Assembly (NCBI GenBank): GCA_964187785.1
Contig: OZ076420.1
Location: forward strand, 26,722,001 to 26,786,000
Direction of reading: 5' to 3'
From: Amphiscolops sp. MND2022
Taxonomy: Eukaryota
DNA length: 64,000 nucleotides
Position 1 is the first letter of the stretch. Every line of letters starts with the position of its first letter. Positions 32,604 through 60,498 of this stretch are shown in pieces. Below the pieces are notes generated by a model. It worked only from the letters and a program-made list of their open reading frames with translations. It did not search any database and had not been told where the DNA came from. The position numbers were made by a program, and so were the translations under genes.

Positions 32604-32663
32604 ATTTAAAAGGAAATATTTTATTGAATTAAATGTTGGGATTTGACGTTAGCGTGAGAATGT

Positions 32664-36852: not shown

Positions 36853-37087
36853 GTTTACTAATACATTTCCTATGTATTATTCTACCATTTGGCGTGGTTA
36901 CGGTGTGTTTTGTTCCCGATATTGCTATATTCGGTTTATCGGTATAAGCACTTTCGAATTTAATTTTCTGAGAAAATTAAATTCGAAAGTGCTTATACCG
37001 ATAAACCGAATATAGCAATATCGGGAACAAAACACACCGTAACCACGCCAAATGGTAGAATAATACATAGGAAATGTATTAGTAAAC
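36853..37087. repeat. Perfect 235-bp palindrome (117-bp arms, 1-nt centre at 36970)
   Basis: GTTTACTAATAC...AATTTTCT-G-AGAAAATT...GTATTAGTAAAC. Confidence 0.95.
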
Positions 37088-38134: not shown

Positions 38135-38652
38135 TTCATGTATATACTTTTTCATAAATAAAACAGCACGAAATAGGCTAATGCTAATGGTAGTATCGCC
38201 TCCTCATCCAAAATACGATTTAACTCAAATCACACAAAATAATAATGGCATTCGGTTTTCCTTTGTTAGAGCAATATCCATTTTTCTGGTAGATTTGAGC
38301 TTCATTCGAGATCAATTGTAAATAAATTAGCATCAGATGCCAAAAAATCGTAACGGTATTGTTCCCAGGTTTTTGATGGAACATGTAAGAAAAACATGCG
38401 AGTCATAGCAAGACCATGAAAGTTTTGTTTATGGCTACTAATTTCCATGTACGGAAACTCTGTATTAACTACATGACATTGTATACTAGACGGTCAACCC
38501 GGAAACTATTATCAATCGAAACATTGATTCACTTTCCAAAGCTTCTGAAAATGAACTTTGAACCTGTTGAACATGACATTAACGCGATATTATACCATGT
38601 TTTTGCGGAGTAAAATTGAATGAATAAAATTATAGGAACAAATCCAACTAAC

Positions 38653-38836
38653 CTTGAGTCTGGAAGTGGGATTGAAAATAAAAAGAAAGCCGTGATTGCA
38701 CAACCGACCCAACCAACTACCATGTAGGGTTTCCTTCTGTATCCCATGATGGGAAGGCAGTCGTTGATGGCCCCATAGACGAACTTCAGACTCCAAGGCA
38801 GAGCCACTGCTGACCCGGCCACGTTGTAGAAATTAC
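38653..38836 (-). CDS. BT1/FBT transporter, exon 3
   Basis: ALPWSLKFVYGAINDCLPIMGYRRKPYMVVGW is the BT1 signature; AG acceptor, GT donor. Confidence 0.92.
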
Positions 38837-39799
38837 CTGAGGAAGAACTCCTTTCTTTTGAAAACATAGGTGCATCTTTGGAGCAAAGAATCTGAATTCT
38901 TTTGAGCCAGAGATGTAAACATAGAGGAGAATGTAAACATAGGAAACAAAAAGTTTCGTCAAAAAATATAGTTGGTCTGTTTCTGGATCAAACTGGGAGA
39001 ATGAAAATCTTGCCAAGACTATTAGAATCTTAGAAAACATGGAGAACTTGACAAAAGAAATTATTCATTGAATATCCCAGTCTCACATTCGAAGAGTTAT
39101 CAAGAGAGCTATCAATAAAATAATGACTCCGCCCGCAACTGCAGAATACAGTGATAAGCTTCATCACAGAAGTGACGTTGCCATACACGATGGACCTCAT
39201 AAAATCACTGACTGTGATGCTCCCTGCCTGCAAATCAAACAGGCAATGCAACGATGTCTTGAACCATCTTGAAGAAAAAAATGTCGCTAAAACTTCAGCT
39301 AAAATCTCAATTGACCAGCCAAGGCAAGAAATACGAACTTATTGGCTCCTTGATTTGATGGCTCCTGATAAAGAGTATCATGGTAATTTTGATGCCAATC
39401 CGATGAATACAACCAGCTGAAAAATAGGAGTACTTTTATCAGGTTCTTAATTGGGCTGATGCTCAATGAATACCTTTTCATACTGAGGAGAAAACAACTT
39501 ACTGTACAATCACTTTTGAAGCTATTGCAAGTGTGCCTCAAGAACAAACTCTAGAAAAAACAGTCGTTTCTTGCCAAATCTCTCACGAACTACTTTATGA
39601 GCTTTTCGAAATGAATTTTTATACAGGGAGATGGAATTTATCTACCTACGTTGATGAAAAAAAAAATCAATTATTTTGGCTGATAGAAAAGTTCTTTATC
39701 TCACGGACATTTTTTAGGTATTCAGTGGTAATTTGACCTTTTTCACGTGATTCAGCAAAGGTTACACGCGTGAAATGGAGAATCAGAAGGGGTTCTTTC

Positions 39800-39946: not shown

Positions 39947-41194
39947 CTGAAGCAAATAAGTTACTGAGACCCTTTAAATTGAAGTAATGAAAAAACTTTA
40001 ATATGTGATTGTTTTCTAAGTCACGTTATTAAAATTGTTGAAGCTCTTCAATTTTTTTTTAAAAAATGTGTTTTTGTTTCGACAAACTTCGACTAGCTGA
40101 AAAATTGATTTTGAATAGGTCTCCCGTTAGGACTTTTTCTCACGAATTAATGAGAATTTTTGAAAATCGGACACACTTATGCAATTGAAAGCTAGAGTTG
40201 TCAATATTCCTTGACTAAAAAAGTGCCATCGAGGCAAGCGAAAAAACGTTTGTTTGCAAGAGAATATGATAGCACTATGTAGTTTCACTATCAATAAATT
40301 CCATACTTCTGTCATACCTCTCCAAACAGTATAATTTCATTTCAGAAACATTTTGCCCATAGGCTGGGTTGTCTAGTTCAAGTCATACTTACTTAATAGT
40401 GGAGTAACGTTTGTCAAGCGGTTCATCCAATCAACATGACCTCTACCGAGTTTCGGTCAGAGACAACATCCGCTAGTTGTTTGTAAACACAACAAACTGA
40501 AGATAGAAACCTGTTATATCATTTTGAGTTCTTTTTGTATAGATTTTAGATACAAAGATACAATCCTAATTTAGTACGCAATTCTCCGTTTTCACAAGAA
40601 TACAACATGGTAAAACGGTGCAGTCAGCCAATGATTGAACAAACTAAAACGAACTTCCTAAAATTAGTAGTGGCAGGAAGAAACTGCTTCGTACCTAAAA
40701 GTGAAGGCTTCGGGTGAGAATCCGGTATATACACCGAGAGAAGGGCTGGAGAGGCTCCGAAAGATCACAGAACGAGACATTGATCCTTTACGTCCCTGAT
40801 TCCGGTTGGACCAAAAAGAACAACAGATACGAAAAGATTTGAGGAGTGGGATCCGAAGCATTCTACCAAATAACTTGAGCGGACCACCAAACAGAACTCG
40901 ACAGTATCGAAAACAAAGACCTGATCTCGTTATTCAACGTATTTTATCTCCCGAAACAGCCGAAAGGAAACAGAACACACACCATACCTGAGGAGACTTC
41001 TTCTGCACCAAACAGACCGAAAACGATACATCAGAAGAAATCCTGAGATGATTATTCGAGATTGAGGAAGACTGTAGCTTCAATACAATTCCCGCTGCAG
41101 AAGTGTTATTATCAAAGCATATGACCGCAATCATCGAGACCAAACGAGACAAAGTGATAAATGAAACGACTTTGGACTTGAAGAAGACTATCAA

Positions 41195-44278: not shown

Positions 44279-44671
44279 TCAGAGACAACACCTGTTACGA
44301 CTATTTACCGGTGTTGTTTTAGAGTTAGTCGCAGTGTGAATTTTGACGGGGGTAGACGTCCTTGCTACGGAGACATTCTCTGGTTCCGAGTCCGAGTCTT
44401 GAGCATTCATGTAGACAGTCTGTTTTTTGTTTAAAGGCGCTATCAGTTTTAACATTTCCTTCTGGTTTTCCGCAAGTAGTTTGGTGAGATCAGACATAAT
44501 CTCTTTTCTTAATGATGTTTTTATCTCAGCCAAGTTTTCTGGTTCTATCCTAGGGATCTTGCTAGAACTAGCTACAAGAGTTTCAGGCGGAAAGTTTTCG
44601 GTTATGGAGGTTTCAAAATCACCGGAGACTAGTTCTGCTACAGCCTTCCTTTTCTGTTTTCTAGTTGTCAT
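44279..44671 (-). CDS. 3'-LTR copy of the gag N-terminus reading out into flanking DNA (130 aa)
   Basis: Matches gag aa 1-126 except R-K-Q vs R-S-Q and N vs S, then RCCL* from the flank. Confidence 0.6.
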   Translation of the reverse strand: MTTRKQKRKAVAELVSGDFETSITENFPPETLVASSSKIPRIEPENLAEIKTSLRKEIMSDLTKLLAENQKEMLKLIAPLNKKQTVYMNAQDSDSEPENVSVARTSTPVKIHTATNSKTTPVNSRNRCCL

Positions 44672-46428
44672 TTTGCTTCAGAGGGAGAGAGAGAGTATCT
44701 TTGGAAAGGTTAAATTCTTCAAAGATTCGTTTTCGTTATAATAACGGAACTGAACTGATTGTTATAAGTCAAGTTGGGAAAACTAACTGATTTACATGTA
44801 TGTATTACATATTTATACCTTCCCAGCATCATTTGTTCCTCACCTAAAAATTCCTAGGTATCACAAAAATCGGGTTTGTTCAACAAAAAGCGCTAATGAT
44901 TCATATTATTTCAGTCCCGCGTCATAAAATCAGGCATCAAAGTTCCTAGTTACGTCAGCATTCCGTAAAATTTGTTGAATTCATTTTTGTTCAGGCGGTT
45001 CATTTCCTGTTTGTGCTTCAAAATTGCGGTGAAATAGAAGTCTAGTTTTCATTTTCATCGACGCAAGCACGCCGGCGTGATCAATTAGTCAGATTCCTAA
45101 CTTAGAAATTGAAATTCGAAGTAAAAGAATGACACTCAAAAAATATCAACGGAACTGTGACGGAATGTGAATATTTTATGGCCAAAGATACTTGAAAACC
45201 AAAATGAGGAACAAGGTGACGCTGAGAAGTCTTTAGGAAGCGAATAGCTTGTGTAAATGCAAATTGTTACGAACTTTACATGTATTGGGAACTCAAAACA
45301 GAACATTTGATTTTAGCATCAAGTAAATGTCACGGAAACAGTCCGTTTATCAAGACTTGTTTAGCGACTAACACACTGAGTATTCAGGCTTACTGGTTTA
45401 AGAAAGCGTATAAAAATACATCATAGCACTCGGAAACAGATTGAACAAAGGTAGAAAAAGACTAGGAGAGGTTATTGGGATGATTATCACTGCATCATAT
45501 CAAAATTGGTACAAATTTCAAAACAACACGAACATTACGTTCATTTCATAATCCTATCTTACAGTACAACTATTCTTTACGTAAACTTAATCTTAGGATT
45601 CCCTAAGGTGTATGAATTCAGAAAAGTTCTTACAAAAGATTCATTCATTACGAAGTTTCCTAGTTGCAATTTCTTAAGTTGCTCCGTAAGTGCTCCGTAC
45701 GTATTAAGATTGCTTATAGCTGAGCAGCAGTAGCAAGCGGATTGGAAACGGAGAGCGCAGGCGAATTCATTCTCTTCTCTTAACTAGCAAGAGTTGCTAG
45801 GGGCAACCAAGCTTAATTTTATTGGTACCGGCTCGGATAATTCTGCCAACAAGCGACGCTATTGGTCCGTAAATATAGTAACGCCCGTCACCAGCTTAGT
45901 TGAGTGACGCTGTCATAACGTTGTAAACATTTACTTAAGATCACTTGACTGCGGTATTAAGTAGATATTTAGCAACTACTTTAATATTGGAATACATTTC
46001 CACTCTATTTTTGTATGTTTTTCCATTTTAGATCTCATGGGCTCCGTTGGGATCTCGGAGTTAAATGTTGTTTCTGTGTTTTCATTTTAGTGTGGAGCGC
46101 CAAAATGATCCCGTTTGCAAAACTATTTAGTATTTAGATTGGAATGGAAAACTCAGAAGATAAAACCGGAAATAAAACGGCGTTGCGTGTGAAAACATTA
46201 GGCCGGAAGTTTTAGCTAGTTTAAAATCATTTCTGAAAATCTTCCGTAACGTTTACGTTGAATTCCGTATTTAGAGAATTATTCGCGCTTATTTAATTGT
46301 ACTGTAAGTAGAATTTTGATTTGATTAGTTTAATAAAGTTTAAAAGTATTTACTGTGCCCTTGTCCTCTGCCGAATCCCGGTATTCCATAGCAGCAAGTA
46401 AAATTACGACCGGGAGCGGGTCGTGACA
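44293..46428 (-). repeat. 3' LTR of element C
   Basis: Direct repeat of 58295-60498, lacking a 68-bp segment. Confidence 0.96.
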
Positions 46429-47284
46429 GGGCCCCTCTTGATGAGAGTGACAAGTGTAGAGCGTGGCACTGCGGGATTTCTTTCCTTATTGTCACGGGGG
46501 GACGACCATTGTACCTTCTTGATTGGAGGGGGCCGCGACCTCTTCCCGCCTTCATGTCTCTAATTTTCCTCTCTTCTTCGTCTATTTCGCTGGCTTCCTT
46601 CTCCAATCGTTCCACTTCCTCCGGACAGCATTCGGGGGGTCTAATTATGATATTAGGACGCAGATTTTCTTTTGCGTGTAGCCCGCGTCCACGGCCTAAG
46701 GATGCGAGGTAATTTCTGTCCTCCAAATCTAGGCTGTACAGAGCTTCCAATTCCGCTAGAGGAGGCTCATTCAGGTCATTTAATTTTTCCGAGTTCGGCA
46801 TTCTTTCATTCCCCATAACAGGGATATTTTCCGTTCTTTTTAGAGCAGGGGTACGCTTTATTGGGGAGGGTAAGCGCTGCGGTGAGTCTGGCTCTTCATA
46901 ATAGTCCGTGTCAGAGTCGGCTGGCGGCAGATCGAACGTGACTTTTCCGGTTCTCCTTTTCTTTTTGGGTGTCGGTGCCGTTTCGGGCGACTCTGAGGTG
47001 GAAACCATTTCTGCATCACTTCCGCGATAAACTTCGATGGAAGAATCGCTCAAGTATCCTACCATATTGAGAGGCAGCGTTTTTGTCGGTGTACTAGTCT
47101 TATTGGCTTCTTCATCTGACGAGATGTCGATAACTAGTGAATAGTTATTCATTTTAGTAGGAGAGAATACTGAGTACTGTTTCGGAAAGGTTGCAGGTAA
47201 TTTGTTAGTGATGATTTCTTGTAACGCTTCAGAAAATTGAGAAAATTTTAAGCTGGTCAAGCTTCTGCTGAGGTTGGACGACAA
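46340..47284 (-). CDS. Accessory ORF-X of element C (314 aa, disordered; SIM, NLS and GRG motifs), spanning the PPT and U3
   Basis: LVIDISSDEE, PKKKRR, GRGRG twice; last ~30 codons lie inside the LTR. Confidence 0.75.
   Translation of the reverse strand: MSSNLSRSLTSLKFSQFSEALQEIITNKLPATFPKQYSVFSPTKMNNYSLVIDISSDEEANKTSTPTKTLPLNMVGYLSDSSIEVYRGSDAEMVSTSESPETAPTPKKKRRTGKVTFDLPPADSDTDYYEEPDSPQRLPSPIKRTPALKRTENIPVMGNERMPNSEKLNDLNEPPLAELEALYSLDLEDRNYLASLGRGRGLHAKENLRPNIIIRPPECCPEEVERLEKEASEIDEEERKIRDMKAGRGRGPLQSRRYNGRPPVTIRKEIPQCHALHLSLSSRGALSRPAPGRNFTCCYGIPGFGRGQGHSKYF
46429..46440 (-). promoter_or_regulatory. Polypurine tract of element C (CAAGAGGGGCCC)
   Basis: Immediately precedes the TGT of the 3' LTR in element orientation. 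Confidence 0.65.
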
Positions 47285-47768
47285 GTGAACGTTTTAAATT
47301 ATTTCCTTTCGGAAATTTCATCGAATTTATATTGGTCGATTTTTCGTTTTCGTTCCGGTTCGTCACGAGTTAAAGGAAACGAGTTCTTTCTTGCTGCGTT
47401 ATGATTGGTCGAAATACTTGAGGGAAACTTCTAATTTTAGTTTCCGTCCTCTTTTCGGTTAATGGCGTAATGACGTCACAGAATTACATCTGTATTCCGT
47501 GATCTTTTAATAAGTTCCCAAGTTCTTCTTGACATTTCTTGGTGGATTTTTATCCACTGTAAGGTCTTTGGAAACGTTTTGTTCCGTCTATGCCATAATA
47601 GGCTTTTATTGGAGTTGAAGATAGGGTGATTTTCATTTATGTAGGAATGATGTTATTAATTTCCTCCCAATTAGTTGCGTTTACGTAACGTAATATCTTC
47701 TTCTTTGTGATTTTCCTTCTTTTTCCTTTTTTAGATTGCTGTGGGCATCTTTGCTGTCGTTTCTTTCT

Positions 47769-50700
47769 ATGGATGACGAAACTGCTCCGCTCCAAGGCAC
47801 CGTCACCGGATTTGTCAGTGGCAATGAAACCAATTTTTGTTATACTGACGATGACGTGATCTTTTCGGAGGTGGAGGCAGTGGTTACTTCTTCAGGTTGG
47901 TAAAATCTTTCTGACTTTCATGGGTAATTGGACTGTTGTTTTGGTGATCAGCCTTTTCAGTCTTACCCGAATACCTGACGCGTCAAACAAGATCTTGATT
48001 TTCAGTAACTCAACCTGGCGCTTCAACTGCGGTTGTTTCCGTAGCCACTGCGGGAGTTCTTTCGACAGAGGCTACTGTTCTGCCATCAGTTTCTACTATC
48101 TTGTCTTCTAAGCCTTCTAGTGCTGTTAACGAAATGTTAACAACTGTATTGACTAGCGCTGAGCCCGACGATTCATTTCCAGTGGACTCTTCTCCTGTCA
48201 TTGTTGGTCCGAGTACGCGTGTTGTTGCTGCAAGTAGCGATAGTGAGTCTCAAGAAGGTGAGACAGATCCCCCCGCCAATAGAAAAACCCGTTGGTAGAT
48301 TCGTTTTTGATGGTGTATTTCTGGTATGTGGGCGGGGTGTACGAAATTTTTTTTGTTGTTATAGGTTTGAGGGATGCTTAGACGTATGGGCCTTCCAACA
48401 TTTGTGTGACGCCATCGAAACGGGCAAAGAAAGTTGTTATCGCTCCGCCATCGCCTCCTCCCTTGGTGCATGCTTCTACTGTTTGGCAGAGTTAGTTCTA
48501 ATATTGTTTTTATCTTCCGTTTCATTCTTTGAATTGGAGAGAGTGTTAGTTGCCCATTGGTTTGGTTTGTTTGGGGATGTCCTATTGTTTGGTACGCGTT
48601 TTCATTGGGTGTTGATGTTGTGTAGGTCACGATGATGATCAGTTGTATGGTGTCGGCGGTGTGACGTTGAGTCCCCAGGATGTGATGCGATTGGGTCAGC
48701 AACTTGTGGAAGAGGTGACGGAGAGTGCTACGCTGGTTATTCAAAACGGTTAGCATTTGCGTTTTCCCTGTAATTCGGGTATTACTTTGTTATTTGGTGA
48801 GGGTTTTCGTTCATTTTCAGTGTGGTGTGTATATTGTTTATCCCCTTCGTGTGTTGTTCGTAGAGTTGCAAGAGTTCAGTGGGAAGGTAGAAAAACGTCT
48901 GGCCAAGCGGACAGTGAAGACATACGGGAATCGCAACACGTTGCATCGTCGTATGTTGAGTCGACATCCTGCTTTTCCTGATTTCGTAACTGGCTCCACG
49001 ACCGGTGAGGGAACTCACTTCCACTGTCGGGTATGCAAGCGTGATGTGGCCATGAAAGCTCAGGGCTCTGGAAAGTTTAGCAGACATTTCCGTTCTGATG
49101 CTCACTGGTTTAAGGACGTTACTTATCGCGTCCATATGGATCTTCAGGTGCTCAACAGGTTGATGGAGCCGATGGAACTGTCAGCAAGTCAACTGGCAGA
49201 CTATAAGTCTCGACCATTTTGTGATCTGAGCGGGGAGTATCCGTTCCCTGAAGATCTATTGCCCAAGCATTCAAAAGCGGAGTCAAACGTGCCCTACATG
49301 ACCTTGGTTTCTTGTTTTTGCGAATTCTTGCGGAATGGTGGTGATTTTGATTACCTTCGTCGTCTGTGGGGCCACTTCCGAGCAACCTTGGGCGACCGAG
49401 AACCTTGCTTTCCTTTACGATGGAGCCGTTCTGAGACCGTGGTGAGTTGGTTTGGTTATTGGTATTGTTTATTTCCGTCATGTATCCGGGTGAGAGAAAA
49501 ACAGAAAGGGATGGGGGGATGTCTTTTGTAGTTGTTTTGAAAGTAGGGTCTCGTTTGTGTTTTAGTCATTCCTTTGTCGGGGGCTGGCTCCGCGAGTTCT
49601 TCGTCTGATGTTGAGTGACGTCAAATCTTTTAAAGAGTACGGGATGCAGTTTGAGAAGTCTGGGAACATAGAAAGTTGCTATATTCTTTGTTGGGATGCG
49701 CTGAATTTAAAGAAGATTTGTGTGGGAGATCAGTCCTTGGATCAAAAAATGCCCGAACCCGAGTTGCTCCCGTTGGCACGTGTAGCGAGCTGTCTAGAGG
49801 GACAGCAATTACCGGTGTCAGTTCTTGGCGCTAGCCCTTCCCTCATTCGCATGTTAGACGCGAACAGGACGGATGATCGGCGGTTTCTGTCATGGCAGTC
49901 GTTTGATGAGGAGGTGTTTCTCCATTGTTTCCGTCAGTCTCATCAGGACATTTTTGGAATGATTGAAGTGACGACTGCATTGGAGTATGTGATCCATCGA
50001 TTGAAAGGGGCTTTGTATGAGGATTGGACAGAAGACAGGCCTCTTCTTCGATCGTGCATACGGGAAGGCTCCGTTGCATTCTGCAATCTTCGAGAGGTCC
50101 TAGGCGATTTAATCGAACTGTGGCCTTCCATACGTCCTTACATTCGCTACACTGGACATCCTCATTTTAAGAGTGTTGCTGATAGGGTGAGTACCGTCGT
50201 ATTATTTGTACATTTCGGTCTTGTGTCGTTCCTTTGTTCTCTCTTGTGCTCTGCTGTGGTATATATGATCTTGGAATGATGGTATAATTTATCCATTTTA
50301 GCTGCGCGGCACGGACTTCGAGTTAATCTCCGATAGTCTCATTGTCTATCGTTTCGGCTTCCTTCGACTGCTTTTAGACTCCTGTAAGTATGGTGAGCTT
50401 TCGTTATAGTTGTTCTCTTTCGACTGTTTCTGATTGTGGTAGTGTATTGGCTGATGTTTCTTGTCGTTGTGGATATGCTATTGTATCTGGTTTCTATTGG
50501 CTGCTTCGTTTTGATCAAGGATTCTGCTTCTTTTCAATAGTTCATGTGTTTAGATTACTTCAATTTTGAGAGATTGCGTCAGTGCCGGAGAGATTACGGG
50601 TTTCATGGTTACGGTGAGGTCTGCAACTTCGTTTACTGTCTGCTGATGCGAACCCGCAAGCTGTCTGATTTGCCAGGTATCCATGAGTGGGAAAGTTATA

Positions 50701-51818
50701 TGGATATTTCGAAACTTTCTTATTTCAACGCTATTTCCATGGAGGAGTTCCTGATGGACAGTGATTTTGGTCGCGAGCTGGTCACTGTCAAGACGAGTGA
50801 GATGCGGGAATTCCGCGTTAAATGTCGTGAGTGTATCGATCGGCTTGTGTCTTTGATCCTGACTAGTACAGCTGTGACTTCTGGCGTTTCGCGAGGTTTT
50901 TATGCTTTCTGTCCGGAGATTATGTTGGGCGGCGACGATCACCACATTTTCGAGTTGTTTGGCTCTCTTTGTGATTTGTTCAGATCCTGCCACGTGATGT
51001 CTTCGGACGGCTTGAATGCTGCTGTTAATGAGTTCAAGAGCTATGTGATAGAGAAACGCAGGCATTACGAGGATGCGACATGTGCTGCGAGTGAGATTCC
51101 TGACGTGGTTCAGTTTCTGTTGCGGGATTTTGCCTTCCAGTCTCGGAGTCATGTATTTCGACTGTTTAAAATATGTTGTCTGGTGGTTGGAGTGCCAAAA
51201 AGTAACCTTCCTGCAGTTATTATCGATTTGGGTGGTAGCGCGCTGAGTCCGGCAGTGGTTCAGGATTGTGTATTGTTAGTGCAGTCTCACATCATCAGTC
51301 CGAGTTTCAATCCTCGATTGTTCTTTTCAGCTTCGTTGCTTGTTGCAGTCCGAGAAGCTATTGCAGAGTCAGGCATTTTCTTCAGAGTTGCCGATTTTGA
51401 TGTATGGAAAGATTTTTGCTCCGGCGATATGGAGTCTTTTGCTGGGCATTATCGATCTTTGTATAAGAAGTATTTAATGGGACGACAGAAAGAGTACGAC
51501 ACTTTCTATGTGGAAAGCAACAAGACGAATCGGCGTTCTCGCGAGAGTCAGTGTTCAAGTTCAACTGAGGCCGGAAGTGCTACAAATTCTGTTGTCGGTT
51601 CCAAGAAAGCATCGTCCAAGATTGCTTCGTCAAAGTCTGTGAAGGCAGGTGCGTCTACTGCTCGTTCATCAGCAAAGGTTGTGAGTAGGGAAGATGGAGC
51701 TGTTGCGAAAAAGAGTGGTGGTGGCAGTGCGTCTAGAAAGTCAAAGAAGGATAAGAGCAGTGATTCTGATGATCCTGATGTAGTCCACAAGTTGAAAAAG
51801 ACATCTTCTAAGCATTAA
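47769..51818 (+). CDS. Spliced antisense gene in element C: BED-like zinc finger plus degenerate hAT-transposase-like protein (~980 aa). Exons 47769-47895, 48006-48257, 48864-49441, 49566-50186, 50302-50392 (or -50383), 50554-51818
   Basis: All five GT-AG introns are phase-compatible; FHCRVC..RHFRSDAH finger; the HCFRQ and VPKSNL motifs resemble hAT. Confidence 0.72.
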
Positions 51819-52009
51819 TGGATAATTGATGATGATTTGATTTCCTGATGAATTATATCTTTTGATGTACCTGTTATTTGTATTCTTTGTTTTATGGTCT
51901 GGTTGATTTCTACGAGTCCCACCATTCGTTCATTATAGTTACGTAGTTTTGGTAGATTGTAAAAATTGACGTAGTCATTCCGGTTCGGTTTGATATGCTG
52001 ATTTTTTGT

Positions 52010-55000
52010 CTAGTCCTGAGTTGATCGTAGTTCTCCCGTAGTGACTGAGTCGAGCATTCGGAAGTCAGGATTTACGTTAGGTCGTGGATTAGGTCCTAAA
52101 TTGTATCGGCCTACTTTCCTAGGATTATATCCAATGACTATAGGCGGTAGTTCGGGTGTTTTGGGAGGGCTTTCTATAGGTGGCGGTGTAAAAATATAGG
52201 GGTTGTCGCTGACGTCCAAGTTAAATGACGTTATGTTGTCGGAGGATGTTTTCCCTTCTGCAGAGTTTTCATTTGTGGCTGTTTGAGCCACGTCATTTTC
52301 CGTTATATCTTCGTTTGTGGTTGTTTTAACCACGTCATTTTCCGCTGTAATTCCAGTTGTGACTGTTTTAATCACATCATTTCCCGTTGTAATTTCGTTG
52401 TTTTCTGTTGTGTCTGTGATTTTTGCGACTGTGGTTTCTTCGGTGGCGTTTTCCGTATTGTTTCCGAACAAAACTTCTCCGAATTCGGTTTCCCAAGCTT
52501 GCGCGTACCAATCATTGTGGGTTGTTTTAACCTCTGGATCTGGAAGGTAATCTTCCCTTCTGACTGTTACGTCAGGTACTCGCTGATTGGGCGCATATAG
52601 CCTTAGGCGAATTCTATGGAGGGTTTGTGTATACCTAGTTCCTGTGCGACGTACGACGTAGTTATTGTTCGAGAGTACTTTGACTACTATGTAGGGTCCA
52701 GTCCAAATGCAATCTTTAAAGGCAAATTTCATTGACTGGTTGTCTGCCTTCGGGTTGAGGACGTAGCAGTAGTCGTTGACTTTGAGCGGTGTAGCCGTTG
52801 CTTTCTTGTCATAGTACTGTTTGTATTTGAGGTAAGACTGCATTAGGTTCTCTTTGGCAGCTTGGTGTATCTCGGCTATTTGTTTCTGTAGTTGGTCCGT
52901 TAGTTCTTCATTGCTATCTTTTTCTCATTTAGGTTTTAATCCAAGTTTTATGTCCAAAATGTTGTACGGGATGCGTCCGTGAAACACTGTTGTAGGTTCA
53001 CAACCTAGGCTTTCATGGTAGCTTGTATTGTAATTCATGACTGCAATCTGGACGTATTTGTGCCACATGGAACGTCGTTCTCCCGTTGATATCTTTAAAG
53101 AGGTTTTTAAAGAAGCATGAGTCCTTTCTAAGATGCCAATTGTTTGGGCGTGTTTCGTCGATGCGTGGCTTATCCTTATATCCAATGTTTGTGCTATTTG
53201 GTTGACTACTTCTGACCTGAATTGTGATCCTTTATCCGTTAGAATGACGGTCGGTAGATAGCAGTGTCGTGTCATGACATCTATTATGCATCGTGCGACT
53301 GTTTTTGCTGTCATATCTTGAGTCGGGTAAGCGAAAAGGTAACGCGAAAAAACATCCATCGTCGTTATGATGTGTTGGTATCCATTTGAGGAAGGTAGAT
53401 TTGGTAGAATGTCTACTTCTAGGCAGTCTTCTGGTCCCATTGTGAATTCAGTGTTGCTTGGCATTTTGGGACGTATCTGTCTTGTGTCTATTCTTTTATT
53501 GGCGATGCAATCCTGACAACTGGTTACCCAAGCTCTGATTTTTCGTGCAAGACCCGGGAAGTAGTATTTCGCTCTGCATTCTTGTATCATTTTGGTGAAT
53601 CCTGGGTGTTTATTTGTTTTCCCATGTAGAGTGGACAGGAGTTCTGGGACTAGGTGTTTTGGAATTATAATTTGGTTATGTGTGACTGTTCCGTCTTCTC
53701 CATAATACTTTCGCATCAGAACTCCATCTTTCATTATGATTCTTCCTTCGTGGCGTAGTAGGTTTCGTCCTCGTGGTTCAGTTTTGAGAAGGTGCTTGTC
53801 ATATTCTTCGTGTGAGATCCGTTGTTTCAGTGCTTTGAGGAGGGGATCTGCATCTTGTTCGTTTCTGATCCGTGCATTTTCCTTAATTGCACCAAAAGAG
53901 TAGACTGTGGAGTTGAGTGGTATCTTGATGACTTCGGTTACCTTTGTTGATAGTTCTCTTTCATGTTCATCTAGGGCACGTCGTTTGCTGAGTTCCTTTC
54001 GGGCAAAAATTTCTTGCTCAGATTCATCTTCTTCATCTGGTAGGAAGAAAAGTTGTTCCTCGTCAGCTACATCTGATGATTGTAGGTTAACTTCAATTGG
54101 GGACGTTAGGATGTCGTTCCGTAGTTTAAGTTGTACCTTTTCTTTCGGTGTAAGTTCAAGTCTTGAGAGAAAATCTGCTGCTGTGTTTTGGGAGCCTGCT
54201 ACGTGCATGATCCGGAACTTGAACTGAAGTACGTAGTCGCAGGCATTCCACAGTGCTGGTGGTGTTGTTTTCGTCTGAAAGAATCTGGTTACTGAGCGGT
54301 TGTCCGTTAAGACCAGAGTCGGAATTGTTGTCTCCCATAGTATATGGCTGTATTCAAGGAAGGCGTGGTAGATTGCCAAGAATTCCTTGCAGTAGATGGA
54401 CATTTTCAGTTGTGCAGGTGAAAAAACTCGTGATCCGAACGCTGCTGGTGCGAAGGTTTTCCGTTTGGAGAGTATTTTGCGTTCGTCGTTCTCCTCGATC
54501 ATGAGGGCGTAGCCTGATGCACGAAAGCTTGCATCCGTCATTAGAACGTACTGTTTTCCTGCTATGGGCTGTCGGAGTGCAAGTCCACAAGCTTCCGCTA
54601 AACTGGCGTTAATTTCCTTAAAGTTACCGACAAGTTCTTCTGAAATTCTGATTTTGGAGTCTGCTTTGAGAAGTTCGTACATGCCAATGAGTTTTTCTGA
54701 CAAGCGCGGTATGTAGTTGCGGTAGTAGTTAACAAAGCCAATGTATTTTTGAACTTGTTTTTTGGATTTGGGGAAGCGGACTTTGGAGAGGAAATTTTTG
54801 ACTTTTTGATCTTGCGGGGCTACGCCGTCGGGGGTGATGGTTCGGCCAAGGAATTCGATTTCGGTTACTCCAAAATGGCATTTTTCGATGGTTAGTTTTA
54901 ATCCTGCTTTTCTAATGCATTTGAAGACTGCTCTGATGTTCTGTATGAGCTGTTCCGTTGTGTTTGCGGCAATGCCAATGTCATCTACGTATTGTGCACA

Positions 55001-55702
55001 TTGGTCGGCTTTGATAACTGATTCCAGATACTCTCGCTTGAAGCTCGAAAAAGCTGATAGGGCTCTGCTTAGTCCTTGTGCCAGGCGACGGTAGGCGAAC
55101 GTCCTACTAGCAAAATTAAAAGCAAGTAACTCTACTGACCTTTGATCAGCCATTTGAAGGCAGTGATACGCCTGGGAGCAGTCAAGCTTGCAGAATAGTT
55201 TTTTCCCTGCTAGGTGTTGTGCCGCATCTGAGAGGGTGCTGACAGGGTGGTTGTTGTTGATGTAGTCATCTGCTATAAGTGCGTTGATTTTGCGCAGATC
55301 CACCAGTAGCCTCAGTTTGCCGTTGGGTTTCCGTTGTGCAAATATGGGACTGGCATACTTGGAGAAGGGGAGTGTCGTGATGATTCCGTATCGATGCATG
55401 AGGGCCAGTTCCACAGTCAGGTCTTCTTTGAGGTTGATTGGGACGGGTAGGCTCTGTGTGTAGACTGGTTTGTCATCTTGTGGTGTTAGGCTGACTTTGA
55501 ATTGTGTGTTCATCCCTATGTCTAGCCGGTGTCGAGCGAAGATGTCGTTGAATTCGACAATGGTGTCCTCGAGGTTTTCACGGTCATTGTTCGCAATCTG
55601 TGAATCTGTCCATTTGAACATGGATAGAAATTTGTTTCGAGACTCTTCGTTTTCGGTTGGGTCAAGTTTTTCTAGCTCGGCAAGGTCTCGCAATTCTTTC
55701 AA
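52010..55702 (-). pseudogene. pol: RT-RNaseH-integrase of element C; in-frame TGA (Trp codon) at 52925-52927
   Basis: KLDCSQAY, QYVDDI, LMTDAS, H-x5-H..C-x2-C zinc finger, VDILP..TDKG..LER; the C-terminal part 52010-52843 is in the same frame. Confidence 0.95.
52267..52396 (-). repeat. ~39-bp coding minisatellite in the integrase tail
   Basis: ITTGNDVIKTVTT / ITAENDVVKTTTN / DITENDVAQTATN. Confidence 0.75.
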
Positions 55703-55713
55703 GATTCGCTTTT

Positions 55714-57266
55714 TTATGGGATCGGAAACCAGAATTTCTCTTCATTGTCGTCGGGCCGCTCTACTTGCATTAGTGCATTGATGTACGTGACCGCATCGTC
55801 ATGGTTAGTGAGGAGGTTTAGGGCGGCTATGTCAACTGGGCGGATCATCTTCGTTTCTTCGGGTTTCAGGATTTGCAGTTCTGCCATTTTGGTATTGGTG
55901 GCTATTGTGTATGGGAAGTCTGTAGTGTTGGCGATTTTTATTGGTATCTTTTTGTCTCTGGCTGTTGTAATCGCTGGAGCTACTATTACCTTCGCGCATT
56001 CGTCGAATTGTGGTAGGGGTTGTATAGTGCCCGTTATTGAGTGTTCGATACTCACAGGGATTGTTGCGTAGATGATTCGGGTAGAGTGCGCTGGGATTGT
56101 ATGCTTGGCTTCGGTCTTTATCGTGATGGGTTTGGGATTGCATTTTTGTCTTTCGTCTGTGAGCGCCATCGTGATTTGGATCTTGGGAAAGTCAATGGTT
56201 CCCTGTGCCGTGTCAAGGATCGCGGCATGCTTACGTAGGAACGCTAATCCAATTATAGGGAATGACGTTTGATTCACGATGATGAATGTTTCTTCAAAAG
56301 TGTAATCCCCTATTTTGAAACGTAGGGTGTACGTGGCAAGTGGTTGTTCTAATTCGGCGTTGGCATACTGCACTTTGAAAGGGGGTGGGGGTGCCTTATT
56401 GATGATGCACTGACTGGCGTGCTGTCGGAGTTTTTCAGCGTCCCTTTCGCTAATAGCGTTAATGTACGCACCTGAGTCGACTAAGGCGTCGATTTTGACC
56501 GTGTTGAATTCGACTGGTAGGAAAAGCATTCGTTTTTTCTTCTTGAGCGCGATGGAAGACATTAACGGGATGTAGTCGTCGTCTTTGTCATGTTGGATGA
56601 ATTCCTTGATGGTGTCTAGATCTTCAGGCAATTTTGAGGGACATTCCGTGATTTCTACGTCGTCATTCATTAATGTTGTGACGGGCGCGGTTTTTGGAGG
56701 GGTCACTGAAGGATGAGCATTTTCTCGTTTTTGTTTTTCTTGATGCGCCCATATGGTTTTGTCCTCGACGCAGATGATGTTCTCAGCGTCTATTGGTGTG
56801 GACGTGATGGTGACGGGTACTGTTGGGGATGGTGTTGTTCTTTTGAGAATTGGCGATGGTGGTGATGGTAGGTCCATGATTTCTGTGGATTGAGCCTGGG
56901 GGTTTGAGACTTGTATTTTGAAGGAGAGTTTGTTAGTATCATGAATGGTTGGTTCATCCCAGGGATCGCATCTGTAGTCTCTATCATAGATGTAGATACG
57001 TTCAGTTTTTGATTCTGGTAAGGGTCGCTTGAGTGTTGCGTAGTTATCTGGTGACTCTGTTATCCATTGAGGTAGTGGTGTTGGGTCGTTTGGATGTCTG
57101 GCATTGTGTCGGAGTATCATGCCTACGTTCCATCGGCGTTGCCAGTCCTGAGTTGGTTCTTCATTACACTCTGTGAAAAAATCTTCTTCGTACCTATTTG
57201 GGGGGTCTTCGATGGTGTACGCCCTCGCGTCTACTTTTTCCCCGAAGCGAAGGCGCGGCGACTTCA
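55714..57266 (-). pseudogene. pro: Protease-containing 5' part of pol (element C), entered by -1 frameshift; broken from RT by a ~34-nt deletion near 55720
   Basis: DALVDSGAYIN, FPIIGLAFL; the -1 frame is open from 57266 to the ORF at 57120. Confidence 0.9.
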
Positions 57267-58673
57267 GTTTTTTGCTTGGGACGACGTCGTAGGTACGGGT
57301 TGTTCGTCAATCTTGTTTGTTGGGATAGTGAACTCACGTTTGCGTTTCCTGGGGTCATTTGCCGCATTGGCTCCGTCCCAGCAATTTTCGGTTTTGTGCA
57401 TTTTTCCACAAGTATCGCATTTGGGTTTAGCTGTATCTGTTGGTTTGGTGTCTGTGGTACTTGTTTTTGTGGCGTAGTACCTGTCTTTGCGGAGGCGACG
57501 GCATTGTGCCTTGTAATGTCCGTATTTCCCACAGTGGAAACAGTAACCTCTCTGCTGTTGTTCTTTCTTATCATCCGCCACTGCTGCGTCTACAGTGTTG
57601 AGGGGGACTAGGGTGGTTTCATCAGGCGCTCCTAGTCCGTTGAGTCGCATTTCGCGTTCAAGGTGTAAAACAATGTCATTATAGGGCTTATCTTCTAGGT
57701 AAGCTTTGTTAAGGATCTTTTTTACGTGATCCGGCATTTTAGCGTTAATGGCTTTGTCGATGAACTTCTGGGCTTCTGAGCCAAACGCTTTTTTTGCGGT
57801 TTTTTGTAACGCGTCAAGAAATTCGTGTAGTTTTTGTTTAGTGGGGTCGAAGTGTAGCGCATCCCACTCGCATCTCGCTTTAGCGGATGATTGGAAATCG
57901 CCAAAGCGACGTTTGAATGCCGTTATGACTTCTTCTAGGTTGTCTTTTTTAGTGTCGTCTAGGTTGCAATACGCTTGTAGTGCGTTTCCTCGTAGGAGTG
58001 AATGGAAGTAGTTGATTTTTTGTATCTCGGTTAAGTGAGGGTACATTTTGATATTATTTCGGAATAGGTCCTCAAAAAGTTCAAACTTTTCGGACTTACC
58101 ATCGAAGACTGGAAGCGAAGCGGTGAGTGCTTTCGGCATCGGAAGGAGATTGGTAGCTGGAAATGTTTGCGGTTGTGGCGCGAACAGGATCTTAGATGTT
58201 GAAGGACGGTCTTTTGTCTGTTCGTTGGGTGCGCGTTGTTGTTTCGGTCTTTTCGCGGGTTGGTTGGTAGAGTCATTGAGGACTCCTGTCACCATGTTAC
58301 GACTATTTACCGGTGTTGTTTTAGAGCTGGTCGCAGTGTGAATTTTGACGGGGGTAGACGTCCTTGCTACGGAGACATTCTCTGGTTCAGAGTCCGAGTC
58401 TTGAGCATTCATGTAGACAGTCTGTTTTTTGTTTAAAGGCGCTATCAGTTTTAACATTTCCTTCTGGTTTTCCGCAAGTAGTTTGGTGAGATCAGACATA
58501 ATCTCTTTTCTTAATGATGTTTTTATCTCAGCCAAGTTTTCTGGTTCTATCCTAGGGATCTTGCTAGAACTAGCTACAAGAGTTTCAGGCGGAAAGTTTT
58601 CGGTTATGGAGGTTTCAAAATCACCGGAGACTAGTTCTGCTACAGCCTTCCTTTTCTGACTTCTAGTTGTCAT
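57264..58673 (-). CDS. gag: Gag of element C (469 aa)
   Basis: LPVFDGKSEKF; CFHCGKYGHYKAQC and CDTCGKMHKTENC knuckles. Confidence 0.95.
   Translation of the reverse strand: MTTRSQKRKAVAELVSGDFETSITENFPPETLVASSSKIPRIEPENLAEIKTSLRKEIMSDLTKLLAENQKEMLKLIAPLNKKQTVYMNAQDSDSEPENVSVARTSTPVKIHTATSSKTTPVNSRNMVTGVLNDSTNQPAKRPKQQRAPNEQTKDRPSTSKILFAPQPQTFPATNLLPMPKALTASLPVFDGKSEKFELFEDLFRNNIKMYPHLTEIQKINYFHSLLRGNALQAYCNLDDTKKDNLEEVITAFKRRFGDFQSSAKARCEWDALHFDPTKQKLHEFLDALQKTAKKAFGSEAQKFIDKAINAKMPDHVKKILNKAYLEDKPYNDIVLHLEREMRLNGLGAPDETTLVPLNTVDAAVADDKKEQQQRGYCFHCGKYGHYKAQCRRLRKDRYYATKTSTTDTKPTDTAKPKCDTCGKMHKTENCWDGANAANDPRKRKREFTIPTNKIDEQPVPTTSSQAKN
57267..57273 (-). promoter_or_regulatory. -1 frameshift heptamer A-AAA-AAC (element C)
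   Basis: GCA AAA AAC TGA; downstream stem CGCCTTCGC/GCGAGGGCG. Confidence 0.78.
58280..58294 (-). promoter_or_regulatory. PBS TGGTGACAGGAGTCC (tRNA-Leu-like), inside gag
   Basis: Abuts the LTR end; encodes MVTGV. Confidence 0.82.
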
Positions 58674-60498
58674 TTTGCTTCAGAGGGAGAGAGAGAGTAT
58701 CTTTGGAAAGGTTAAATTCTTCAAAGATTCGTTTTCGTTATAATAACGGAACTGAACTGATTGTTATAAGTCAAGTTGGGAAAACTAACTGATTTACATG
58801 TATGTATTACATATTTATACCTTCCCAGCATCATTTGTTCCTCACCTAAAAATTCCTAGGTATCACAAAAATCGGGTTTGTTCAACAAAAAGCGCTAATG
58901 ATTCATATTATTTCAGTCCCGCGTCATAAAGTCAGGCATCAAAATTCCTAGTTACGTCAGCATTCCGTAAAATTTGTTGAAGTCATTTTTGTTCGGGCGG
59001 TTCATTTCCTGTTTGTGCTTCAAAATTGCGGTAAAATAGAAGTCTAGTTTTCATTTTCATCGACGCAAGCACGCCGGCGTGATCAATTAGTCAGATTCCT
59101 AACTTAGAAATTGAAATTCGAAGTAAAAGAATGACACTCAAAAAATATCAACGGAACTGTGACGGAATGTGAATATTTTATGGCCAAAGATACTTGAAAA
59201 CCAAAATGAGGAACAAGGTGATGCTGAGAAGTCTTTAGGAAACGAATAGCTTGTGTAAATGCAAATTGTTACGAACTTTACATGTATTGGGAACTCAAAA
59301 CAGAACATTTGATTTTAGCATCAAGTAAATGTCACGGAAACAGTCCGTTTATCAAGACTTGTTTAGCGACTAACACACTGAGTATTCAGGCTTAATGGTT
59401 TAATAAAGCGTATAAAAATACATCATAGCACTCAGAAACAGATTGAACAAAGGTAGAAAAAGACTAGGAGAGGTTATTGGGATGATTATCACTGCATCAT
59501 ATCAAAATTGGTACAAATTTCAAAACAACACGAACATTACGTTCATTTCATAATCCTATCTTACAGTACAACTATTCTTTACGTAAACTTAATCTTAGGA
59601 TTCCCTAAGGTGTATGAATTCAGAAAAGTTCTTACAAAAGATTCATTCATTACGAAGTTTCCTAGTTGCAATTTCTTAAGTTGCTCCGTAAATGCTCCGT
59701 ACGTGTTGTGGTTGCTTATGGTAGGGCGGTGGAATACAATTTTACAATCCGCCCCGTAAGTGCTCCGTACGTATTAAGATTGCTTATAGCTGAGCAGCAG
59801 TAGCAAGCGGATTGGAAACGGAGAGCGTAGGCGAATTCATTCTCTTCTCTTAACTAGCAAGAGTTGCTAGGGGCAACCAAGCTTAATTTTATTGGTACCG
59901 GCTCGGATAATTCTGCCAACAAGCGACGCTATTGGTCCGTAAATATAGTAACGCCCGTCACCAGCTTAGTTGAGTGACGCTGTCATAACGTTGTAAACAT
60001 TTACTTAAGATCACTTGACTGCGGTATTAAGTAGATATTTAGCAACTACTTTAATATTGGAATACATTTCCACTCTATTTTTGTATGTTTTTCCATTTTA
60101 GATCTCATGGGCTCCGTTGGGATCTCGGAGTTAAATGTTGTTTCTGTGTTTTCATTTTAGTGTGGAGCGCCAAAATGATCCCGTTTGCAAAACTATTTAG
60201 TATTTAGATTGGAATGGAAAACTCAGAAGATAAAACCGGAAATAAAACGGCGTTGCGTGTGAAAACATTAGGCCGGAAGTTTTAGCTAGTTTAAAATCAT
60301 TTCTGAAAATCTTCCGTAACGTTTACGTTGAATTCCGTATTTAGAGAATTATTCGCGCTTATTTAATTGTACTGTAAGTAGAATTTTGATTTGATTAGTT
60401 TAATAAAGTTTAAAAGTATTTACTGTGCCCTTGTCCTCTGCCGAATCCCGGTATTCCATAGCAGCAAGTAAAATTACGACCGGGAGCGGGTCGTGACA
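58295..60498 (-). repeat. 5' LTR of element C
   Basis: Followed by the PBS; contains the gag start codon at 58673. Confidence 0.96.

Follow-up and report, generated by a model that had tools for sequence, protein, structure and literature searches.

A conserved accessory ORF entering the 3′ LTR of a Ty3/gypsy element from Amphiscolops sp. encodes a predicted disordered protein with SIM-like and PP1-docking-like motifs

The window analyzed here is a 64,000-nucleotide stretch of contig OZ076420.1 from Amphiscolops sp. MND2022. It contains a young 16.2 kb Ty3/gypsy element on the minus strand, referred to as element B, which shows the LTRs, target duplication, PBS, PPT and gag-pol order that define a Ty3/gypsy LTR retrotransposon. 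The 5′ LTR (58290..60498, minus strand, 2209 bp) contains the start of gag at 58673, and the 3′ LTR (44289..46428, minus strand, 2140 bp) carries a copy of the gag 5′ end. The two LTRs match at 45681-46428 and 59751-60498, differ by 16 substitutions, have TG..CA ends and are flanked by a 5-bp target duplication, with the PBS at 58289 directly after the 5′ LTR. The gag gene (57264..58673, minus strand) encodes a Retrotrans_gag domain with a CCHC knuckle, and pol (52010..57306, minus strand) has the domain order PR-RT-RNaseH-IN and is broken near 55.7 and 52.9 kb in the present copy. The best solved-structure match of the pol product is Ty3 Gag-Pol (E 3.5e-36), and Pol may resemble that of acoel elements. 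A search of Rfam gave no match anywhere in element B.

The sense strand of element B also contains an open frame, ORF-X, with a coding sequence at 46340..47152 that specifies 270 amino acids and a stop; this gene and all its parts given below are on the minus strand. The ATG is at 47152 and the stop ends at 46340. As the 3′ LTR begins at 46428, ORF-X crosses the PPT (46429..46439, minus strand, an 8-nt purine run and three C followed by the TG of the LTR) and its final 89 nt are U3 of that LTR, exactly as an earlier note on this DNA had described. The same note had given a sense ORF of 314 amino acids, and here the open frame stands but the length does not. The count of 314 starts from an upstream TTG (stop to stop the frame is 317 amino acids), and the 44 codons upstream of the ATG at 47152 show no conservation as protein. 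The start Met, on the other hand, is identical in 98% of the 40 divergent homologues that cover the position, and because the relatives begin at this Met we take ORF-X to be 270 rather than 314 amino acids long. Both the start Met and the end are kept across homologue lengths of 216-304 amino acids, and frame, start and end are maintained in dozens of subfamilies. All motifs quoted earlier are present in the translation.

ORF-X belongs to a family of 57 homologous clusters with 33-96% identity, and a profile search returned 174 representatives, of which the 31 inspected are family members or pieces of them. About two thirds of the listed cluster members (75 of 114) are exactly as long as their representative, and many subfamilies with an intact ORF-X hold tens of near-identical copies. 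Pattern matches to DNA relatives numbered 11 in viral contigs and 318 in metagenome contigs, and none of either was confirmed.

As a proxy for the dN/dS comparison proposed in the earlier note we used a frame-shift comparison, in which out-of-frame pieces of relatives are set against one query; this is not a codon-model estimate. Differences at third positions outnumber those at first and second positions by 210:70, where the null is about 1:1 and neutral simulation gives 0.83-1.20. The excess is seen in 19 of 22 out-of-frame pieces, with three ties and none reversed. By region the ratio is 23:4 at the N-terminus and 65:17 in the U3-encoded amino acids 249-270, compared with 2:10 beyond the stop. 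This codon-position bias implies that ORF-X is under protein-level selection, also within U3, which agrees with the protein-level constraint reaching into U3 that had been suspected. Private substitutions within families are equally frequent in conserved and variable columns (0.0108 and 0.0114 per residue respectively). Between lineages the SIM-like block described below differs by 0.010 per column per pair against 0.164 overall, and a weak test of substitution quality gave BLOSUM values of -0.10 versus -0.35 (p 0.044).

The class pattern of a SIM is a hydrophobic core followed by acidic or Ser residues. The best-conserved block of ORF-X, amino acids 6-15 (47108..47137), fits this pattern, with an acidic/Ser tail and a location in a predicted disordered region. 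Residues 7-13 are identical in 36 of the 40 divergent rows covering the block. Of the 39 tree rows 30 show a SIMa-class pattern, all but one of them at residue 7, and such a pattern arises in the first 16 residues of 0.14% of ORF-X shuffles (3.7% anywhere in the protein). The proposal of a SIM-like motif is therefore borne out by a near-invariant block. Behind it lie conserved blocks at amino acids 20-44 (47021..47095) with a CDK-type Thr-Pro site and a Ser/acidic patch; mean identity is 0.75 for residues 20-28 and 35-44 in divergent rows, and the CDK-type pattern occurs in 52 of 57 matches against 21.7 by shuffle, kinship being ignored.

A basic cluster, the predicted NLS, follows a Thr-Pro site at amino acids 61-67 (46952..46972; the motif quoted earlier is residues 62-67). 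At least four K/R in six residues are found in 40 of 56 rows, and the cluster is absent from whole multi-copy subfamilies, so the NLS is optional and its standing as a core feature is not supported. Adjoining it at amino acids 70-73 (46934..46945) is a PP1-docking-like motif of the RVxF class, the pattern of which is K/R-V/I-x-F/W. ORF-X fits the pattern of a PP1 RVxF interactor, having the motif in a predicted disordered region and kept in evolution: it is present in 38 of 57 matches against 3.2 by shuffle (kinship again ignored), and among 42 rows the columns hold K/R in 33, V in 32 and F in 38. One supported clade has it in 21 of 24 rows, with two further cases outside. Of the 19 matches that lack it four are fragments not covering the site, and several multi-copy subfamilies are without it. 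Since these subfamilies lack both the RVxF-type motif and the basic cluster, PP1 recruitment cannot be a universal core of the family.

Further along are an acidic di-aromatic block with two invariant Glu (amino acids 84-91, 46880..46903) and a D-box-like stretch (amino acids 104-109, 46826..46843) that lacks the canonical Arg and has Asn109 in 35 of 43 rows. A canonical D-box, RxxLxxxxN, was rejected, as it occurs in 4 of 57 matches against 4.4 by shuffle, which is chance. The KEN-box-like motif (amino acids 161-163, 46664..46672) has only three letters, and a motif of this type is present in 36 of 57 matches against 4.5 by shuffle with kinship ignored, its place differing among five positions.

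The C-terminal half contains the sole confident predicted helix (amino acids 177-202, 46547..46624), which is absent in short subfamilies, and a series of RG motifs. The first RG pentapeptide (amino acids 153-157, 46682..46696) is missing in short subfamilies, and residues 152-156 are identical in 16 of 56 rows; the second (amino acids 203-207, 46532..46546) is identical in 32 of 55. The U3-encoded tail (46340..46428) begins with DNA-constrained codons, followed by a Cys pair at amino acids 253-254 and an RG variant at 261-265, and two Cys are present in 28 of 33 in-frame U3 tails. No tripeptide is more widespread in the family than one of RG type, present in 34 of 39 rows, and RG motifs average 3.0 per protein. 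They are single, spread over amino acids 153-265, and retained as a class but shifted in position between relatives. The expectation that SIM and RG motifs would both be conserved thus holds for the SIM, and for RG as a class though not in place. Tudor ligands of the PIWI type have a clustered N-terminal array of RG/RA repeats. ORF-X has its RG motifs scattered through the C-terminal half, has no such N-terminal array and loses the first RG in short subfamilies, which speaks against the PIWI-like Tudor decoy that had been envisaged.

A similar tail in a second element, element A, had been taken as a sign of constraint on the protein. The window holds only the 5′ LTR of element A (2485-5051), with no ORF-X body upstream of it within the window, and the U3 start (4948..5051, minus strand) encodes a tail like that of the ORF-X family. 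Conservation of the first seven U3 codons is at the level of DNA, since 86 of 100 residues stay unchanged when the reading frame is a different one, and in element A 19 of the 21 bases that open the LTR are identical as DNA. The argument from the two tails is for this reason only weakly valid: the shared start falls away, and the part beyond the first 21 bases gives weak support, with 4.7 bits against a profile of the family tail, a score that 16 of 1000 shuffles also attain.

Structure prediction for ORF-X gave a pLDDT of 56 and a pTM of 0.18 with one confident helix, so the protein is predicted to be mostly disordered with no globular domain, in line with the earlier description. No Pfam family matched in the 35 rows searched, Bel/Bet families included, and DUF7115 was rejected at E 0.07-0.1. 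The best hit of the ORF-X profile against the PDB was unrelated (E 0.81), and the ESM Atlas yielded no usable match. None of the 57 matches has a hydrophobic segment, none reaching a 19-residue hydropathy of 1.6 (query maximum 0.25), and an Env-like or sORF2-like reading was rejected as ORF-X has no signal peptide or transmembrane segment. A Nef homologue was rejected because none of 35 rows matches the Nef family, there is no PDB match and no folded core is predicted; Gly follows the family start Met in none of 35 aligned rows.

Head-to-head with ORF-X lies a candidate multi-exon gene on the opposite strand (47770..51818, plus strand; exon limits inferred), with a Cys/His finger-like exon at 48879-49441 and a last exon at 50542-51818 that has 32 homologous clusters. 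It is conserved and situated between pol and the 3′ LTR, the arrangement of the Retand type, and a Transposase_28/TRP28 domain was found neither in 19 aligned last-exon proteins nor in the window's separate ORFs. By eye the protein resembled a decayed hAT transposase, and this was not confirmed: Pfam gave no match, the model was of low confidence (pLDDT 47) and Foldseek returned nothing at E 0.001. The best Z in VIA was 5.3, the finger exon had no PDB match, and no family or fold was assigned. A TBC-domain lead for the last exon from the ESM Atlas (0.90, 143 shared features, low recognition) was not accepted. The RVxF-type motif, the KEN-/D-box-like motifs, the U3 Cys pair and the head-to-head antisense gene are new here; the earlier note mentioned neither the RVxF-type motif nor the degron-like motifs nor the divergent gene.

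The region 47227..47478 (minus strand) is a candidate internal promoter or leader. It contains a CRE-type palindrome (47471-47478), CCAAT boxes (47404-47410 and 47331-47337), a TATA-like sequence at 47331, a stretch near 47297 common to distant subfamilies, and an acceptor-like site ending at 47227, 75 nt upstream of ORF-X. Taken as promoter signals these are weak: the window has no excess of the CCAAT-type 7-mer (13 vs 9.95), and of 16 extensions of the shared stretch only 4 did as well as their shuffles or better. Splice-like signals in element B comprise acceptor-like sites before gag and ORF-X and GT-AG junctions.

Across the family the linkers of ORF-X drift while its short motifs persist, be they SIM-like, CDK-type, basic, RVxF-type, KEN-type or RG. 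The reading we lean towards, at a little less than an even chance, is that ORF-X is a conserved accessory gene for a predicted disordered adaptor, likely nuclear, that probably docks through its N-terminal SIM-like motif on chromatin proteins carrying SUMO, probably recruits PP1 as well in most subfamilies, and in this way keeps the element's own loci transcribed. Its mRNA would be subgenomic, made from an internal promoter shared with the antisense gene or by splicing to the acceptor-like site, and would end in the 3′ LTR. The SIM could bring the protein to SUMO-rich silencing foci, where the RG/Cys tail may anchor it to nascent RNA or chromatin of the element, perhaps together with the antisense finger protein. 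There it might compete with SIM readers and PP1 adaptors of the host, which promote heterochromatin and premature termination, and the CDK sites and KEN/D-box-like degrons would confine it to certain stages of the cell cycle. That ORF-X overlaps PPT and U3 is most simply put down to compaction, by analogy with nef and foamy bel2. Fly piRNA-guided silencing is reported to use SUMO-SIM contacts, and a SIM-flanked fragment to de-repress fly transposons dominantly (10.1101/2021.07.27.453956); PNUTS-PP1 termination is described as part of the fly SUMO/piRNA silencing pathway (10.64898/2026.08.12.744517), viral accessory proteins are described as recruiting PP1 via RVxF (PMC10807198), and the anti-silencing by transposable elements covered in one review is narrow rather than global (PMC6719617). 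A more elaborate version, which we regard as rather improbable, is a two-gene counter-silencing cassette with a shared bidirectional promoter, in which the finger protein of the intron-containing antisense gene finds the element and ORF-X hijacks SUMO and PP1 to prevent heterochromatin and early termination at that place.

The motif set would also fit roles in RNA export or integration. As a Rev/CERV-like export factor, ORF-X would bind unspliced genomic RNA with its RG/Cys tail and license that RNA to leave the nucleus, with proline-directed phosphorylation and PP1 acting as the switch. The splice-like signals of element B, the RG motifs and kept Cys pair of the tail, and the reported export role of CERV in the gypsy element Cer1 (PMC10309623) all favor this, but CERV has three predicted structured domains where ORF-X has none, and conservation peaks at the SIM-like N-terminus and not at the RNA-binding-like tail, so we consider it rather unlikely. 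The combination of CDK, KEN and RVxF motifs is typical of mitotic regulators. Their frequencies (52, 36 at five positions, and 38 of 57) could accordingly be read as marking a cell-cycle timer for stem or germ cells, or a tether by which mitotic or SUMO-rich chromatin is linked with the particle or the pre-integration complex, acting through CDK, PP1 and APC/C; with a canonical D-box at chance level and an ORF separate from the polyprotein, we hold this to be distinctly unlikely.

More doubtful still is the model first put forward for this DNA, in which ORF-X diffuses freely as a decoy and, by titrating SUMO readers and Tudor proteins, weakens piRNA silencing across the whole genome. It draws on the near-invariance of the SIM-like motif, the prevalence of the RG tripeptide and the reported dominant-negative action of a SIM-bearing fragment in fly cells (10.1101/2021.07.27.453956). 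Against this, ORF-X has a single SIM and RG motifs that vary in place, the RVxF-type and degron-like motifs are left unexplained, and it has been argued that anti-silencing of a broad kind defeats itself, the known cases being narrow (PMC6719617); the decoy is less likely than an adaptor relieving silencing locally. The sign of the effect cannot be read from motif data, and SIMs are reported to recruit SUMO-dependent repression more often than they block it (Sov; 10.1101/2021.07.27.453956), so ORF-X could instead restrain its own element by recruiting host silencing and limiting copy number. The many subfamilies with intact ORF-X and tens of near-identical copies, and the difficulty with which lineage selection would keep a pure repressor, make this very unlikely. 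That the frame has no protein function and merely accompanies cis-acting DNA or RNA signals near the PPT and LTR has in its favor the DNA-conserved first U3 codons; we judge it highly improbable given the three-fold third-position excess across ORF-X, absent beyond the stop, and the kept start and end in proteins of varying length.

ORF-X matters beyond this locus. In the usual view Gag and Pol suffice for a gypsy element, with Env added where the element is infectious, and here a whole lineage keeps a selected 3′ accessory gene across dozens of co-existing subfamilies. Retrovirus-like complexity, with an ORF over PPT and U3 and an antisense gene, appears to have arisen independently in a Ty3/gypsy clade. 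The basic cluster and PP1-type motif form a natural presence/absence series among subfamilies, and the motifs name candidate host machines (SUMO, PP1, CDK, APC/C) and residues to mutate. An anti-silencing role, if true, would bear on how some genomes come to live with a very heavy burden of LTR elements in spite of small-RNA defense, and the two-gene cassette, if true, would be an anti-silencing protein system encoded by a retrotransposon in an animal-type host, made up almost entirely of mimicked short motifs and partly LTR-encoded.

HIV/SIV nef is a sense ORF that crosses the PPT into U3 and encodes a non-enzymatic adaptor using short host-like motifs, with an N-terminal Met-Gly myristoylation signal. 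The comparison with nef made in the earlier note survives for the position only. ORF-X would likewise be an adaptor working through short motifs, but it has no sequence match, no Met-Gly start and no predicted folded core, its motifs are of nuclear rather than membrane-trafficking type, and its host element is Ty3/gypsy. The foamy virus genes bel1 and bel2 (Tas, Bet) are likewise accessory ORFs at the 3′ end, described as having an internal promoter and with the non-coding U3 starting downstream of bel2 (PMC6950176, PMC4261875), whereas ORF-X shows no homology to them, its promoter is only inferred, and element B lacks env and has its second accessory gene in antisense. Closer in host is CERV of the C. 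elegans Ty3/gypsy element Cer1, which reportedly depends on a Cys loop and on being phosphorylated, presumably by a proline-directed kinase (PMC10309623). It too is an extra nuclear, phospho-regulated protein of an animal gypsy element with a Cys motif, the ORF-X counterparts being predicted, but CERV is large with structured domains and ORF-X is short, disordered, placed over PPT/U3 and equipped with SIM- and RVxF-type motifs.

Plant Retand, Grande and RIRE2 elements share with element B a long region from pol to the 3′ LTR with conserved extra ORFs, which in the plant elements are reported to include antisense ORFs with their own promoter and a nuclear product (PMC7264820, PMC11963269). The antisense gene of element B differs in having no Transposase_28/TRP28 match, in being seemingly multi-exon and in standing head-to-head with a sense gene that enters U3. 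Accessory ORFs within an animal gypsy group are also described for Drosophila MDG1 elements, where sORF1 is subnuclear and sORF2 is a membrane protein (PMC11952523), but these are given as 70-110 amino acids long and upstream of gag, while ORF-X lies 3′ and has no hydrophobic segment. A 2019 review counts just three cases of anti-silencing encoded by transposable elements, all from plants (PMC6719617). VANC of VANDAL is an accessory protein, encoded by a transposable element, that lifts the silencing of the family to which it belongs (PMC6719617). VANC belongs to a plant DNA transposon, targets DNA methylation, has a demonstrated function and is unrelated to ORF-X in sequence, but its role is, by analogy, the same as the one proposed here for ORF-X.

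ORF-X, a minus-strand accessory ORF of a Ty3/gypsy LTR element (element B, 44289–60498, minus strand), encodes a real, selected protein family that is unmatched in the libraries searched. The reading frame extends without interruption from 47293 to a stop at 46340, and its earliest ATG, at 47152, gives 270 amino acids; the same Met begins 98% of 40 divergent rows in the alignment of relatives. An earlier note on this sequence had described a 314-aa ORF crossing the polypurine tract and ending 89 nt inside the LTR. The frame does span the purine run at 46432–46439 and stops 89 nt into the 3′ LTR (first base 46428), but the start shared with relatives shortens the protein to 270 residues. All motifs quoted in that note are found in the translation.

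The LTRs of element B (2140 and 2209 bp) are 16 substitutions and 69 gap columns apart, have TG..CA termini and are flanked by a 5-bp target duplication, with a PBS beginning with TGG after the 5′ LTR. At 40412–40607 a sequence resembling the unoccupied insertion site is its paralogue, so element B lies within an older repeat. The pol domain order (PR-RT-RNaseH-IN) and the best solved relative of pol, Ty3 Gag-Pol, identify the element as Ty3/gypsy, and pol of this copy is broken near 55.7 and 52.9 kb. Of 7999 candidates scored against the RT, 1311 are relatives at or below E 1e-40, with no named record among the 120 matches listed from ENA. The gag ORF starts within the LTR, where approximately 128 gag codons are found (44279–44677 and 58290–58679, minus strand), so that the 3′ LTR holds a second, truncated gag start. 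An acceptor-like pyrimidine-rich site immediately before the gag ATG suggests that part of the LTR serves as a spliced leader. Pfam also gives a weak dUTPase-like match (E 0.08) in the stretch separating protease from RT (55714–57306, minus strand), in a region that occurs in element A, a related gypsy element, too.

A word-indexed search (2232 candidates) identified ORF-X relatives in 57 clusters at 33–96% identity, none of which has a name or a Pfam family, and ORF-X itself gave no match in Pfam or the PDB. A 35-row profile matched 174 representatives among 1.84 billion proteins, of which 150 were listed; the 31 inspected, including the 21 weakest listed, were all family members, pieces or chimeras, therefore no outside homologue was seen among them. 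Conservation of the frame across copies, on which the earlier reading depended, was borne out: many recent subfamilies carry an intact frame of 216–301 aa, and in the eight clusters examined 75 of the 114 members listed have the same length as their representative. AlphaFold2 predicts disorder (pLDDT 56, pTM 0.18) with a single confident helix at aa 177–202, and a membrane-like segment was found in 0 of 57 relatives.

To estimate selection we used frameshifted relatives, in which a stretch of the gene is read in a different frame, and classed their differences from the window by the ORF-X codon position changed. Of 42 pieces, 30 passed the cut-off of E 1e-3, and dropping near-duplicates left 22. 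Third-position differences outnumber first/second-position differences by 210 to 70, compared with ratios of 0.83–1.20 in neutral simulations; these counts are a proxy and not dN/dS, as the rows share ancestry and each was set against the same single query. The two frames give the same answer (122:45 and 88:25) despite an alignment bias expected to push them in opposite ways, and the excess is seen in 19 individual pieces, with 3 ties and none opposite. The counts are 23:4 for aa 1–55, 74:33 for aa 56–223, 39:14 for aa 224–241 and 65:17 for aa 249–270, within U3, while past the stop they are 2:10. At the first U3 codons (aa 242–248) the DNA itself is fixed, with 86 of 100 residues the same even out of frame. 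In a second test, which retained 73 of 114 members (same length, less than 10% different), private substitutions within families were equal on conserved and variable columns (0.0108 and 0.0114), so uneven mutation does not account for the conservation pattern. Between ten lineage pairs the block resembling a SUMO-interacting motif (SIM) has 0.010 differences per column per pair, compared with 0.164 overall. The contrast in substitution quality was weak (p 0.044).

For column counts the 14 closest matches were set aside, leaving 43 divergent rows, and motifs were classed by their general patterns. On this alignment the SIM-like block (aa 7–13) forms the core of the protein, being identical in 36 of the 40 divergent rows covering it; such a pattern falls within the first 16 residues in 0.14% of shuffles. 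The next best kept is a CDK-type site with a Ser/acidic patch (aa 20–44), and an acidic di-aromatic block at aa 84–91 has two invariant Glu. A basic cluster (at least 4 K/R in 6; 40 of 56 rows) is directly followed by an RVxF-class, PP1-docking-like motif at aa 70–73, found in 38 of 57 matches against 3.2 by shuffle, which ignores common descent; K/R, V and F are kept and x is free. On the tree this motif is present in 21 of the 24 rows in one supported clade and in 2 rows elsewhere, requiring 6 changes, and is an optional module. KEN occurs at five places, in 36 of 57 matches (4.5 by shuffle, descent again ignored). The canonical D-box is at chance frequency, and in distant subfamilies a D-box-like stretch occurs that lacks the Arg. 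The most widespread tripeptide of the family is an RG one (34 of 39 rows, 3.0 copies each), with individual sites gained and lost; the conservation expected of SIM and RG thus holds for the SIM-like block and for RG content, but not for single RG sites. A Cys pair in the U3 tail is kept in 28 of 33 in-frame tails.

Element A is cut by the window edge (1–5051, minus strand), and the window contains its 5′ LTR (2.57 kb) alone, without an ORF-X body before it. The similar tail encoded there had been read as protein-level constraint. Its first residues are shared because 19 of the 21 first LTR bases match element B; the remainder scores 4.7 bits on the family profile, a value equalled in 16 of 1000 shuffles, the other frames scoring below zero, and there is modest support for an ORF-X gene in this lineage too. 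The same LTR has two CRE-type palindromes (4390 and 4487) near CCAAT and TATA-like boxes.

Between ORF-X and pol lies a candidate multi-exon plus-strand gene (approximately 47770–51818) of ORFs with GT-AG-like junctions, one exon being Cys/His finger-like. It is conserved across subfamilies (32 homologous clusters at 39–97% for the last exon), and family and fold searches assigned it neither. As its introns run antisense to the genomic RNA, they would outlast reverse transcription. In one database protein, P0203, a fragment of this finger protein is fused to the C-terminal end of ORF-X from another subfamily, which would imply that an inversion or rearrangement took place in the copy and that the two genes are linked. 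They stand head to head with 618 bp between them, a gap containing a CRE-type palindrome (the window has 6, against 0.89 expected), CCAAT boxes, which are not enriched, and a TATA-like box. Near 47297 is a stretch that recurs 114–126 nt upstream in the extensions of 4 of 16 relatives, and an acceptor-like site ending at 47227 is similar to that preceding gag. ORF-X mRNA could come from an internal promoter or from splicing.

Elsewhere, a Polinton/Maverick-like element (19011–32926; terminal inverted repeats 263 nt, 98%) carries rve integrase, Pox_A32 packaging ATPase, HNH and a MAM-domain ORF, as well as a DNA polymerase B-like ORF recognized by eye, with no Pfam match. This element and a degraded gypsy relic (33181–35288) are flanked by minus-strand fragments of a transporter gene of MFS/BT1 (folate-biopterin) type (16939–18351 and 38529–38987), probably one interrupted host gene. 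A perfect inverted repeat at 36853–37087 (117 nt, 1-nt spacer) is either a biological palindrome or an assembly artefact.

A disordered chain with short motifs kept and linkers drifting reads as an adaptor, whose predicted partners within the nucleus would be SUMO, PP1, CDK and possibly APC/C. In flies, piRNA-guided silencing employs SUMO-SIM contacts (10.1101/2021.07.27.453956) and is also served by PNUTS-PP1 termination (10.64898/2026.08.12.744517), viral accessory proteins often take PP1 via RVxF (PMC10807198), and the TE anti-silencing known so far is family-specific, broad blocks being argued to be self-defeating (PMC6719617). For these reasons we tentatively favour, at somewhat below even chances, a role in which ORF-X would locally relieve silencing at the loci of its own element. 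The frame, its family, the codon-position proxy and the motif patterns are what the sequences show, while the route of expression, the cellular location, all partners and the direction of the effect are deduced from them.

The earlier note instead proposed a SUMO/Tudor decoy, which we take to be global in its action and consider improbable. RNA export like that of CERV (PMC10309623) is unlikely, though the least so of the alternatives, and cell-cycle timing or integration tethering, to which the CDK-type and KEN patterns might be related, is only slightly less doubtful than the decoy. The opposite sign of effect, with ORF-X restraining its own element, seems very improbable, and the absence of any protein role is scarcely credible beside the codon-position counts.

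In the literature searched, mostly papers outside subscription and without the supplements, whose repeat libraries and tables may contain such elements, we found no report of this protein or of a SIM/RVxF-bearing gypsy ORF that overlaps the polypurine tract and U3; passages of PMC9911081 and PMC13269885 likewise say nothing about it. The likeness to nef drawn in the earlier note extends to position, which foamy bel2 also shares (PMC6950176, PMC4261875), but ORF-X fails tests of homology and anatomy for both. Additional 3′ ORFs, sense and antisense, are already known from plant gypsy elements (PMC7264820, PMC11963269) and accessory nuclear proteins from Cer1 and the MDG1 group (PMC11952523). 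ORF-X belongs to a known kind, the retroelement accessory gene, with a mechanism that is proposed here.
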